Assembly (NCBI GenBank): GCA_963792965.1
Contig: CAWBYW010000007.1
Location: 480,001 to 544,000, forward strand
Origin: an uncultured delta proteobacterium
GTDB lineage: Bacteria; Desulfobacterota; Zymogenia; Zymogenales; Zymogenaceae
Length of the DNA: 64,000 nucleotides
Direction: 5' to 3'
Position numbers and translations under genes: made by a program. This document shows positions 13,818 through 17,338 of this stretch, piece by piece (position 1 is the stretch's first letter; each line of letters begins with the position of its first letter). The notes beneath the pieces are model-generated. The model was not told where the DNA came from. It saw nothing but the letters and a program-made list of their open reading frames with translations, and did not search any database.

Positions 13818-14228
13818 TTAGTTATTATAGTATGAGTTGGAATACATGTTATCGTAGGCGTTATAATAGGCGTTGGAATAGGTATCGTCGTACGCGTTGG
13901 AGTACGCGTTGTAGTAGGCATTGTCGTATGAGTTAGTGTAGTAGGTCGAGTCCGAGTAGTCGTAGTAGGCGTCGGAATACGTATCAGAGTAGGTATCGGA
14001 GTATTTGTCATAATAGGCATCGGAGTAGACGTCACCGTAGGTGTCTGAGTACACGTCGGAATACGCGTCGGAGTAGAAACCCTGGGTGATGACGGCGCTC
14101 ACGCCGAGTGACCCGAGCAGCGCCGCCCCCTTGGCGATGCGTTTGAGGGCTTCGCGCCGGTTCAGCTTTTCATTCCCGACGGCGCCCTTCTCTTTGTCTT
14201 TGGTCGCTTTCTTCTCTTTGTCTTCCAC
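13818..14228 (-). CDS. Tyr-rich tetrapeptide-repeat protein with twin-arginine-like leader (candidate RiPP precursor)
   Basis: GTG start after AGGAAAG; 50-aa leader with NRREALK and a hydrophobic stretch; 86-aa tail of Y-x-D-x then Y-x-N-x units with varied synonymous codons. Confidence 0.8.
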   Translation of the reverse strand: MEDKEKKATKDKEKGAVGNEKLNRREALKRIAKGAALLGSLGVSAVITQGFYSDAYSDVYSDTYGDVYSDAYYDKYSDTYSDTYSDAYYDYSDSTYYTNSYDNAYYNAYSNAYDDTYSNAYYNAYDNMYSNSYYNN

Positions 14229-14466
14229 TGTTCTTTCCTGGTGGCGTAATTTAGTAATTATGACGTACTGACCTGCCCCCGAGAACTACACCGGCGCCTC
14301 TGTCGGTCTATGGACATACGCTTCTCTTTGAACCACAGAATGTCGCGAGGTATAGTTTCGGGAGCAGGCACCCCCTTTGTCTGCCCCTTGAATGACAAGA
14401 CCGTAAAGCAAGGATGCTGTGTAACAGATAGGGCAGACTGCCAACTCGATCCGCGACGAGCCCGGA

Positions 14467-15097: not shown

Positions 15098-15942
15098 TCA
15101 ACTACTGAAAATAGTATAGCCGCTATTTTGTTGTTCCCACATTCTTAACGAAGAGTATAGGAGAGTGGAGGAGAAGCAGTTAGGATCATAGGCAATTCTG
15201 AGTGCTTTATCCAGTACTTCTAGATTTAGTTTCTTTGCTGTCCCAAACTTTTTTCTGAGCCCGATAAGGAGTAACTCCACTAAGTCATGTCCAACACAAG
15301 ACTGCAAACGGTCAAAATCCCTATCTAATAGATTTCTCAATTCATCCTCAAGATCTCTCGCATTTAAGCCGCAACTATCTGTCCTAGATATAACGACCAC
15401 AACCAATCTTCTAATATCTATATTGAGAGTCGACTTATCCGTAAAACTCTTGAATCTGAGGCCTTCAAACTTTAGCCCAAGATTTCTTTGCGACTCTGAG
15501 GAAATCCATCTTAACATGCCTATCGGAAAAGCAGCATTTAGAAGTGCGTTAAGCACAGGGACTTTTAACTTGTCTATCTTACTTCTAGAACCATGCTGAC
15601 GTAAGACTTCAGCAAGAGCTCTAGAAGCGATAAGCATTGTCTCCAAATCGTGATAGTCCGTGGAGAATACGTTATCGTTTTCAAATACAGTTCCTTCTAT
15701 CTTAGAAAAATCGGAGTCGATGATAACAATAATGCCTTTAACACCCATTTGTTTAAGAATATTATTAACTTCGAGCGCGGTTTCTTTGTTACACGCAATT
15801 TCGATAGCACACACATCCTCGTGAATAAACTTCCCGTATAGAAGCGCATCTGTATAACCCTCAACTATTATTATAGTCCAGCAAACACCTGACGTCTCTG
15901 CCATATCTTATTTACTATTCTATCTGGTTTTAGAGGATTCAT
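15098..15942 (-). CDS. DUF4435 / TOPRIM-like protein (PARIS AriB-like), frameshift near the N-terminus (~15878)
   Basis: IIVEGYTD, IIDSDF, TDYHDLETML, GHDL motifs; upstream MNPLKPDRIVNKI fragment in another frame; follows an ABC ATPase. Confidence 0.75.
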
Positions 15943-15944
15943 CT

Positions 15945-17281
15945 TTCTTCGGCCCCTTTAACACAACCGTTAGATCCGCCTATTACTTATTATGTCAGGC
16001 GAGTGCGTTGCTATCAGCACGTCGAAATTTGATAGTTCTATTGTCTGTTGAAGATCCCTAAGAAATCTTTCCTGCCATTCAACATGTAATGATAGTTCGG
16101 GCTCATCAATCAGAATCGCCGCGAGATTTTCCTCAAGTTCGAATAGTAGTCATTAGAAAATCTGGCTAGTTCGTTTGCTCACCGGAAGATAGATTCCCGA
16201 GCGGTATACGTTGTTATCTGGCCACCTGAAACAACGAAGCCATCCTTACTGTCTATTTTTAGTTTTGTATAAATAAACCGGCTATTAATAATATTCTTTA
16301 GACAGGCTTATTCTATTGTAGAGCTTCATCAAAAACGCTCAATTTTTCTCTTAATGTCTTCAACATGGATCTACAATACATCGCGATTTGTATCTTCTAA
16401 TTTCTTCAGTTCCTGGAAGTTTATCCCCTTCTCATCCTCTTCCAGAAGACCGACGTCGAACAAAAGTGAACGCTTTTGATTATTCTCCTCATATTTTGTC
16501 TCCATCTCATTTTCGTCGAGATCGGAGTTCCTATCTAGTCTCTTTACTAATCTTTTTGGAAAGCTACTATCGAGGAGTTGAGAACGAGAGGCATATTCCG
16601 CCAATGTAGATTGTATTCTCTTGGCAAGATTTCTTGAATAGACACTTACAGTTGAGAGTATCTTCACGCTGGATTCATCCTCTTCGCTCGCTCGCATTGA
16701 TCTAACTGTTCTCTGGGTATCAATGAATTTGACTTTTATGTCCTCCAAATTCATTAGCCATTCAGGTTTTGCGTGAGTCTCGTTTCTTTTGGAGGGAGGT
16801 AGTCCTAGTCTATTACCATAAACTTCGATGACTTCTTCTAATGAAAGGACTTTACCTGTATTTCTATTCCTCCAGGTGTCATAGGTTACTCTCATAAGTG
16901 CCGGGATTCTTTCTTCTATTGCTCTATAGATAAATCTCGTCGGGTAAGACGTTTCGCGAGTAAATACGTAAGGGCTCGGCCTCCGTTTCTTGCCTTTGCT
17001 ATCTGTACCATAGAATTCTAAACCGGCCCCTTTATCTGTGTCGTATTTACTCCTAACGGTAATTTGCTTTTATCATCAAATTCTAATATGAACTCTTTAA
17101 AGGGAATGCTTAATAATTCATGAAAGCGATTCTTACAAAGGGAATTTACCATTCTCAGTATGATAGTCTTACCAAACCCATTTGGACCAATAACGATAGT
17201 AATGTGCTCATTAGTATTCAGGCTAATGTTGTGGTTAAATATACCGAAGAGCTCGGTTACTTCTATTCTCGTTACCCTCAT
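15945..17281 (-). pseudogene. ABC-type (AAA_15/AAA_21) ATPase (PARIS AriA-like), multiply disrupted
   Basis: Walker A GPNGFGKT; signature LSSGEQ (~16180); Walker B/D-loop ILIDEPELSLHVEWQ (~16100); H-loop IATHSP (~16000); split over several frames. Confidence 0.8.
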
Positions 17282-17338
17282 CAGTAGTCTCCCCATCTAT
17301 TTAATAATGTATTATACTTATTTTAGTTTCCTAACTTC

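Follow-up and report, generated by a model that had tools for sequence, protein, structure and literature searches.

Is a small protein that consists of a twin-arginine leader and a long ladder of tyrosine repeats left as it is translated, or is it the substrate of enzymes encoded elsewhere in the genome? This question is raised by a 136-codon open reading frame (ORF) in a 64,000-nucleotide stretch of DNA from an uncultured member of the Zymogenaceae (the window; positions 480,001-544,000 of contig CAWBYW010000007.1, which is contig C7 of genome G000). A preliminary description of the window had called the product an orphan and had offered two readings of it, either a multiply cross-linked RiPP (a ribosomally synthesised peptide that is modified after translation) with its maturase elsewhere and export by the twin-arginine translocation (Tat) pathway, or an unmodified repeat protein. 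We found that the gene belongs to a family of putative precursors, five of which lie in tandem directly upstream of a conserved cassette of radical S-adenosylmethionine (radical SAM) genes on contig C36 of the same genome. Taken as a whole, the sequence comparisons tilt toward placing the window copy, as a dispersed precursor, in a previously undescribed RiPP-like system, in which it would be modified in trans, exported by Tat and triceptide-like in its chemistry.

The tyrosine-repeat gene

The window ORF is a real gene. The 11 nucleotides 5' of its GTG start codon (AGGAAAGAACA) are similar to those of the C36 paralogues (AGGAGAAGACA), and because the N-terminus MEDKEKK is common to several paralogues in the alignment, this start can be regarded as fixed. 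The leader (residues 1-50) comprises a Lys/Glu-rich stretch, the motif NRREALKR and a 20-residue stretch of Gly, Ala, Leu and Val, whose T-Q-G end is a possible signal peptidase I site. The tail (residues 51-136, 86 amino acids) contains 27 Tyr, 15 Asp, 14 Ser and 10 Asn, and there is no Cys anywhere in the protein. Tyr-to-Tyr spacing in the tail is mostly 4, with the repeat register unbroken over all 86 residues, and the residue two positions after Tyr (Y+2) is Asp in 12 cases and Asn in 10. The resulting Asp/Asn share, 0.81 of the Tyr residues having a +2 residue, was reached by 0 of 2000 shuffles of the tail, which confirms the period-4 Y-x-D/Y-x-N tail that had been described behind a 50-residue leader.

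At the DNA level, Tandem Repeats Finder reported degenerate periods of 12, 24 and 36 nucleotides with 61-75% matches, as well as a single 23-nucleotide stretch with 90% matches. Synonymous codons are mixed throughout the tail (TAC 18 and TAT 9 for Tyr, GAC 10 and GAT 5 for Asp, and four codons for Ser). Because the DNA repeat is degenerate and synonymous codons vary, it is at the protein level that the repeat is preserved, and the earlier argument from codon variation to protein-level selection holds. The AlphaFold2 (AF2) model of the precursor has a mean predicted local distance difference test score (pLDDT) of 47.9, with a helix over leader residues 24-50, a low-confidence C-terminal helix and zero strands. 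At this low confidence the model gives no support for a solenoid, so that the beta-solenoid or amyloid fold offered as an alternative is neither supported nor refuted by structure prediction.

A small family of precursors

When the genome and 60 relatives were searched in six frames, seven places matched in the genome itself, and 7 of the 9 other family genomes gave matches as well. The motif RR-x-A-[LMI]-K-R-[IM] occurs in exactly 7 ORFs of the genome, all of them Tyr-rich, and of its 16,649 six-frame ORFs with a length of 60 amino acids or more, only 9 hold at least 12 Tyr in a 60-residue span, 6 of these with the leader motif. A full profile searched against 5.8 billion proteins returned 45 clusters, every one of them "hypothetical" or unnamed. 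The claim that the protein is an orphan therefore fails, since the window copy is one of seven paralogues with about 45 clusters of relatives in public sets. A profile of the leader, searched against 1.84 billion representatives, matched 20 proteins at E ≤1e-3, of which 18 are small and Tyr-rich; the two long ones, P0071 and P0079, in which only the hydrophobic part matched, 17 and 21 times over, were rejected as unrelated. The only match of a word search with the single protein (P0002, E 9.7e-3) was rejected as compositional, being of low complexity and without the leader. The whole precursor gave no match in Pfam or NCBIfam up to E 10, and a protein atlas lookup returned unnamed clusters only, with low recognition, a Cxxx-repeat cluster at 0.84 being a mere lead. 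The Tyr-repeat precursors are a small, previously undescribed family, and the window ORF is almost certainly a true member of it.

In an alignment of 18 members, R24, R25, A27, R30, A32, G34 and G39 are invariant and E26 and K29 nearly so; the window copy retains all seven invariant residues together with E26 and K29. The leader of the family follows the pattern [ST/GN]-R-R-E-A-[LMI]-K-R-[IM]-A-K-G and continues into a Gly/Thr-rich hydrophobic stretch, right after which 15 of the 18 members have a Cys, usually as Q-[DG]-E-C. This Cys is absent from the window copy, from the other C7 copy and from one copy in genome G006. The cores are hypervariable across members (YYNYSN, YYNYSD and YYRYSR, with YSDA and YSNA in the window copy). 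Unlinked precursor copies are also found in genomes G005, G007 and G009, each of which holds the cassette, and no synteny was detected between the window locus and these copies.

A sister subfamily carries the leader LTRR-x-A-M-KRIAAG and core units PYGDSA, PYSDA and DYSDA, as in block 1 of the window copy. In two of its three metagenome loci (L030 and L031) the precursors lie directly upstream of genes like the first radical SAM gene of the cassette (rSAM1), and in the third (L032) the precursor stands at the contig end, with the downstream region not visible. The rSAM1-like gene after the precursor in L030 and L031 encodes only two Cys at the expected C-x3-C-x2-C site, and by its sequence the protein may not bind the SAM cluster. 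As a separate observation, three of the five tandem paralogues on C36 (5734-6189, 6366-6686 and 7033-7392) end in charged tails that resemble metal-binding sequences (RDRDSDHDRDRDRDRDH, HFHHYRDHHH and EEHEEHEEHEGGERR); the window copy has no such tail.

A conserved radical SAM cassette

Downstream of the tandem paralogues, the C36 cassette encodes rSAM1, a 292-residue protein, a second radical SAM enzyme of the SPASM type (rSAM2) fused to a glycosyltransferase family 9 (GT9) domain, and an Lgt paralogue. The best NCBIfam matches of rSAM2 are DynA (4e-41, 141 bits), the anaerobic sulfatase maturase anSME (7.5e-38, 130.5 bits), DarE and DarW, with further matches to the cyclophane formers AmcB, GrrM/OscB, YhhB, FxsB and XyeB. 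Among solved structures, anSME (2.7e-18) and ChlB (1.1e-8) come closest in sequence, and 12 orthologues of rSAM2 keep CX3CX2C and seven SPASM-region Cys, including CX2CX5CX3C. An anaerobic sulfatase maturase system was considered and rejected, as the 130.5 bits compare with a TIGR03942 cut-off of 349 and the cores lack C/S-x-P-x-R. Since every curated cut-off was missed, the enzymes belong to no named family.

The 292-residue protein matched no model in NCBIfam or Pfam, and hence none for HxsD. None of its 60 homologues is named, two of the source labels being Deltaproteobacteria and Syntrophobacteraceae metagenome-assembled genomes (MAGs). Its predicted structure has a pLDDT of 90.4 and its best PDB matches are ChlB with bound precursor and anSME (TMq ~0.6). 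It has no C-x3-C-x2-C motif and four invariant C-terminal Cys, and going by the model it can be read as a pseudo-radical-SAM partner. A complex prediction for rSAM2 residues 1-385 with precursor residues 1-90 scored 0.00 in a run without controls, which is evidence neither way.

By tblastn, the cassette was found at 7 of the 12 loci searched, the five without it being unlinked copies and a contig end. Eight of the 10 Zymogenaceae genomes hold rSAM1; no match was obtained in G001 or in G002, the latter having its precursor at a contig end. Among 401 genomes sampled from the phylum, 21 hold rSAM1, 13 of them outside the family. Seven of these 13 further loci (L045-L050 and L056) have a homologue of the 292-residue protein beside rSAM1, and a leader-bearing precursor lies just upstream in exactly those seven; the other six, which have only a distant rSAM1-like gene, have no leader-bearing precursor. 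The cores at the seven loci are of the NY-x-NY, Y-S-R or Y-[ST]-S-G type, the last of these with a period of 4 as in the window copy. The preliminary description had proposed a check of whether homologues adjoin radical SAM/SPASM genes, and both the tandem paralogues on C36 and these conserved loci show that they do. GT9 is fused or adjacent in the cassettes L009, L013, L015, L016, L045-L050 and L056, and not in L029, a locus from one further MAG.

Some loci differ in the arrangement of these genes. At L048 (G177:C17, 10311-12603), two consecutive radical SAM/SPASM genes, 52% and 39% identical to rSAM2, are followed by a separate GT9 gene, and in the precursor V-T-N-C and a Gly run precede a Y-[ST]-S-G core with a period of 4. 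At L013 (G009:C5, 4150-6999, minus strand), radical SAM/SPASM, GT9 and Lgt form one 949-residue open frame, which could be a true fusion or the result of a lost stop codon. At L012 (G005:C2:451362-452390), the match to rSAM1 contains one TGA and two TAA codons, and the partner, rSAM2 and Lgt are in pieces, which could reflect decay or sequencing errors.

Core register and predicted cross-link

In the 22 cores analysed, D, N, S or R makes up 52-88% of the Y+2 residues, and in 20 of these cores at most 33 of 2000 shuffles reach the observed share (the exceptions being C36_2 and G009b); core G009c, which has M-R-R instead of K-R, was left out of this analysis. As the repeats are not independent events, the bias counts as a pattern rather than as a test. 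The preferred Y+2 residue shifts by lineage between N, D, R and S, and the register remains constant.

Passages of a review (PMC11002830) describe the enzymes that form three-residue cyclophanes (3-CyFEs) as joining residues i and i+2, XncB acting on Trp with Arg or Asn as the partner, OscB on Trp with Asn or Asp, and MscB on Phe with Ser, and Tyr links running from C3 to the C-beta of Asp (YxdB) and from Tyr to Arg (YhhB). A Tyr-Ser-Lys cyclophane is documented in a passage of PMC12912966. Because the Y+2 residues of the precursors are these published acceptors, and because of the families nearest to rSAM2, we propose Tyr-to-C-beta(i+2) cyclophanes as the modification, which by analogy is a realistic possibility that we hold with reserve. 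The earlier idea of Y-x-D/N triceptides fits both the nearest families of rSAM2 and the Tyr-Asp and Tyr-Arg chemistry given in those passages of PMC11002830. That the window precursor is modified in trans by the C36 cassette at all seems probable from the family relationship.

Export and lipidation

The family leader fits the twin-arginine consensus loosely, as [STN]-R-R-x-A-[LM]-K followed by a mildly hydrophobic stretch. TIGR01409 matched 5 of 18 leaders, one of which (L013:10010-10159) lies above the cut-off of 16.7 with 17.0 bits, and the formate-dehydrogenase Tat-target and Iro signal models gave weak matches to the leaders. TatC is encoded in the genome of the window (1.5e-75). The strongest support for Tat export is the linkage at L029, where rSAM1, the partner, rSAM2 without GT9, the precursor and TatC (3.8e-46) follow one another in this order, this TatC being the only one found in that genome. 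A 561-residue ORF after this TatC appeared TatB-like by eye and was rejected as TatA/B, with PF02416 at only 11.3 bits (E 0.2). The Tat reading made in the preliminary description gains support from the TatC gene beside the L029 cassette and from the sub-threshold TIGR01409 matches, and it is likely, as far as leader and linkage can indicate, that the window precursor is exported by this route.

Each family genome has three Lgt-like genes. In G000, the presumed housekeeping Lgt gene, at C16:199829-200584, adjoins signal peptidase II. A tree of 19 Lgts places the six that are linked to cassettes in a clade with 100/99 support apart from the C16 Lgt, and two more join this clade, one on a short G008 contig and one in G001. 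Canonical lipoboxes are present in distant members of the precursor family, namely L-A-S-C (L029) and I-S-A-C (P0121). With moderate confidence, the Cys-bearing members are predicted to be lipidated; the window copy, judged by its Cys-free sequence, cannot be. The cassette-clade Lgt of G001 (C277, L058, 1344-2096) lies downstream of a Cys-x-x-x repeat ORF (546-1025) with a canonical SRRKFLK twin-arginine leader, G001 being the family genome in which neither rSAM1 nor Tyr-rich precursors were found.

Proposed mechanism and alternative explanations

In the proposed mechanism, the C36 cassette (rSAM1, the pseudo-radical-SAM partner and rSAM2/SPASM-GT9) would bind the leader in the cytoplasm and act in trans. 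The SPASM enzyme, which resembles anSME, DynA and the 3-CyFEs, would then join the Tyr ring to the C-beta of residue i+2, yielding up to ~21 three-residue cyclophanes at -2 Da each, and GT9 may add sugar. The leader would also act as a twin-arginine signal, with the rigid modified peptide leaving via Tat. Cys-bearing paralogues would probably receive their lipid from the Lgt paralogue of the cassette; lacking a Cys, the window copy would be cut by signal peptidase I between TQG and F or would stay anchored by its leader.

Several observations weigh against this reading or parts of it. No maturase, peptidase or transporter adjoins the precursor gene, as had been stated earlier and is confirmed by the neighbour genes, and no maturase is encoded inside the window. 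The earlier suggestion of a RiPP with its maturase elsewhere stands insofar as radical SAM candidates were located on C36 beside five paralogues and are conserved with such precursors in other genomes; their action in trans on the window copy is something that we infer. The window copy is without the Q-[DG]-E-C-x-G-G-Y junction found in 15 of the 18 aligned members, and with this loss it may have left the pathway. Its exact protein is absent from a collection of 15 billion proteins, which says little because 2 of 3 other paralogues looked up are likewise absent. A metagenome contig scan with the window protein confirmed 0 of 511 pattern matches and gave no close relative, and no orthologue of the window copy is available to show purifying selection. 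As to export, the search of the 18 leaders against Pfam matched no Tat-signal family, and the window leader reaches 13.0 bits (E 0.11) with TIGR01409, below the cut-off. Since the short precursor at L047 keeps RREALKRI without a hydrophobic stretch, the RR motif may also, or mainly, be a recognition site for the maturase. The Q-D-E-C that is usual in the family is a poor lipobox. Finally, all matches of rSAM2 to named radical SAM families lie far below the curated cut-offs, and its chemistry could differ.

This last point bears on the possibility that the cassette modifies the precursor by chemistry other than Tyr-C-beta cyclophanes, such as ether or C-N links (as for DarE and DynA), Tyr-Tyr links, hydroxylation or mainly glycosylation by GT9, with rSAM1 and the pseudo-radical-SAM partner perhaps being the main catalysts. 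The top matches of rSAM2 are DynA and anSME, no named Tyr-cyclophane enzyme, and all are below cut-off; rSAM1 has no assignable subfamily, rSAM1-like genes are the nearest neighbours of the sister-subfamily precursors, and GT9 is fused or adjacent in most cassettes, L029 excepted. However, Tyr followed by D, N, S or R at +2 is the one core feature kept from lineage to lineage, which matches the published cyclophane acceptors, and we regard a different chemistry as unlikely. A further explanation is that the window protein is an unmodified, exported, Tyr-rich low-complexity envelope protein (a scaffold, an adhesive, or a metal- or mineral-binding protein) that shares ancestry and signal peptide with the cassette-linked copies and nothing more. 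Tyr-rich tails alone do not imply modification, because three other small Tyr/Gly/Asp/Asn-rich ORFs of the genome (C7:117468-117860, C9:121023-121640 and C18:152548-152820, all on the minus strand) have ordinary signal or lipoprotein-like N-termini and no RR leader, two of them with a Cys after the hydrophobic stretch (LLFGC and FGAGC). The unlinked position of the window gene, its missing Cys junction and the His/Asp/Arg/Glu-rich tails of some paralogues, which suggest metal binding, would fit this explanation as well, yet we find it quite unlikely for a protein that keeps every invariant leader residue, including positions beyond the RR pair, and a strict Y-x-D/N register, that shows no ordered fold in AF2, and that has dispersed counterparts in G005, G007 and G009, all with the cassette.

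Very improbable, in our judgement, is a decaying or silent duplicate or a never-expressed ORF. The absence of the exact protein from the public collection would fit such a gene, although 2 of the 3 other paralogues looked up are missing in the same way, as would the position beside defence-like genes in a possibly variable region. A promoter and terminator scan around the gene gave counts within the range of shuffles, and hence no clear promoter or terminator. Against this stand a frame that is intact over 136 codons, a good ribosome-binding site and a repeat register without a break over 86 residues.

The preferred reading of the window copy as a dispersed, trans-modified precursor can be extended, in a tentative and rather doubtful generalisation, to a RiPP class whose twin-arginine signal doubles as the leader. 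Long Tyr-x-(Asn/Asp/Arg/Ser) cores would be stapled in the cytoplasm into at most ~20 cyclophanes by a three-protein radical SAM module, perhaps glycosylated by GT9, exported by Tat and mostly anchored through the Lgt paralogue. The product would be a rigid, Tyr-dense lipo(glyco)peptide layer of the envelope of anaerobic Desulfobacterota, with the window copy as a Cys-less, releasable variant. The Tyr density, together with the His/Asp-rich tails of some paralogues, may be said to point to redox, metal-binding or envelope-structural roles. If the proposed mechanism is right, cyclophane chemistry of the triceptide type would extend to very long Tyr repeats, and RiPP maturation would be joined to Tat export and to Lgt lipidation, both of them general pathways of the envelope. 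Full-text literature searches found no paper that joins a twin-arginine motif or lipobox with radical SAM RiPP precursors; the supplements of radical SAM surveys may list the cluster. The parts of the system also form a testable set that is suited to studying substrate tolerance and leader recognition: a single genome supplies one cassette, with its pseudo-radical-SAM partner and GT9 fusion, and seven natural substrates that differ in their X3 residues.

Feature coordinates and gene neighbourhood

The features of the precursor gene, its paralogues and the cassette are collected in Table 1. The neighbours of the precursor gene encode an amine-oxidase-like flavoprotein, two proteins of no family, a DUF4435/OLD-like protein, an AAA fragment and a DUF4870 protein. 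The stretch at 15098-17296 on the minus strand, beside the precursor gene, may represent a split or decayed defence-type ATPase pair.

Table 1. Positions of the precursor gene and its parts, neighbouring genes, paralogues and cassette genes. Coordinates without a contig name are positions in the window; those with a contig name refer to contigs of genome G000.
Feature	Position	Strand	Remarks
Whole coding sequence, unlinked Tyr-repeat precursor paralogue	13818..14228	-	136 aa + stop, GTG start
Shine-Dalgarno AGGAAAG	14233..14239	-	4 nt 5' of GTG
Leader N-region, residues 1-22	14163..14228	-	Lys/Glu-rich, MEDKEKKATKDKEK...
Twin-arginine motif N-R-R-E-A-L-K-R, residues 23-30	14139..14162	-	TIGR01409 13.0 bits, cut-off 16.7
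Hydrophobic h-region, residues 31-50	14079..14138	-	IAKGAALLGSLGVSAVITQG; helix in AF2 model
Core block 1, residues 51-94	13947..14078	-	Y-x-D units, mostly Y-S-D-[ATV], period 4
Hinge T95 and core block 2 (residues 96-136)	13821..13946	-	Y-x-N units YSNA, YYNA, YDNA
DUF4435 protein	15098-15904	-	Weak OLD-like TOPRIM match
One of two short ORFs after DUF4435 gene	17018-17296	-	Only an AAA/SMC-type P-loop N-terminus
Leader-bearing paralogue	C7:439496-439921		~40 kb before window
Five tandem leader-bearing paralogues	C36:5086-8142		Directly upstream of radical SAM cassette
rSAM1, 343 aa	C36:8281-9312		C-x3-C-x2-C at residues 10-17; PF04055 4e-13; no subfamily
292-aa protein, no family	C36, between rSAM1 and rSAM2		Start overlaps rSAM1 end
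rSAM2/SPASM with C-terminal GT9 glycosyltransferase, 692 aa	C36:10140-12218		GT9 = PF01075, 1e-6
Lgt	C36:12218-12985		PF01790 1e-45; start codon overlaps preceding stop

Comparison with known systems

The closest likeness is to the triceptides and their 3-CyFEs (XncB/XyeB, OscB/GrrM, MscB/FxsB, YxdB, YhhB, HaaB, ChlB and MicB), which, according to passages of PMC11002830 and PMC12912966, share with the present system aromatic-x-X3 repeats in which X3 is Asp, Asn, Arg or Ser. Tandem precursors are shared as well, and the candidate maturase beside the five C36 paralogues is an anSME-like radical SAM/SPASM enzyme with matches to AmcB, GrrM/OscB, YhhB, FxsB, XyeB and the ChlB structure. The present cassette differs in adding a second radical SAM enzyme, a pseudo-radical-SAM protein, a GT9 domain fused to the SPASM enzyme and an Lgt paralogue, and in having no protease or ABC exporter; the leader is Tat-like, there are up to ~20 motifs per peptide, all family scores are below cut-off, and the cross-link is a predicted one. 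The darobactin and dynobactin enzymes DarE and DynA couple an aromatic ring to residue i+2, as given in passages of PMC11002830 and PMC12912966, and DynA is the top NCBIfam model for rSAM2, which also matches DarE and DarW. The 141 bits compare with a DynA cut-off of 450, and the precursors here are long Tyr repeats in contrast to a single short Trp-containing core.

The His-Xaa-Ser system (HxsABCD) likewise combines a tandem aromatic-x-small repeat precursor with two radical SAM enzymes and a further partner. Matches to it are weak (HxsB 1.1e-15, 57 bits against a cut-off of 370; HxsC 2.8e-4, 20 bits against 268), and it differs in that the 292-residue partner matched no model, HxsD included. 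The Cxxx-repeat radical SAM targets of TIGR04117 share period-4 repeats, and over its first 45 positions that model matches 5 of 18 leaders, with 18.2 bits at best; the G001 ORF upstream of the cassette-clade Lgt also carries Cxxx repeats. These scores lie below the 50-bit cut-off, and the window protein differs in having no match, no Cys and repeats based on Tyr. No TIGR04117 member above cut-off was found in the 401 genomes. G000 has a second repeat-peptide system, in which C33:2108-2362 (minus strand) matches TIGR04117 sub-threshold at 26.9 bits and C33:4672-5064 (plus strand) is a small Cys-rich ORF of the C-T-G-C-T-A-G-C-T type, both beside two near-identical radical SAM/SPASM-like open frames that may owe their duplication to an artefact of assembly.

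Both actinomycetes and haloarchaea have lipoproteins that depend on Tat. In common with Tat signals and Tat lipoproteins, the family has [ST]-R-R-x-A-[LM]-K after a charged N-region, a mildly hydrophobic Gly/Thr-rich stretch, a Cys after the h-region in most aligned members, and a TatC gene adjoining the L029 cassette. It differs from them in having no A-x-A site, in that 1 of 18 leaders passes TIGR01409, and in the Q-D-E before the Cys, which is unlike a lipobox. Because every curated cut-off was missed, the system is not filed under any of these named families; its genes describe it best as a triceptide-like radical SAM peptide system that would combine a Tat-type leader with a pseudo-radical-SAM partner, a GT9 fusion and an Lgt paralogue.

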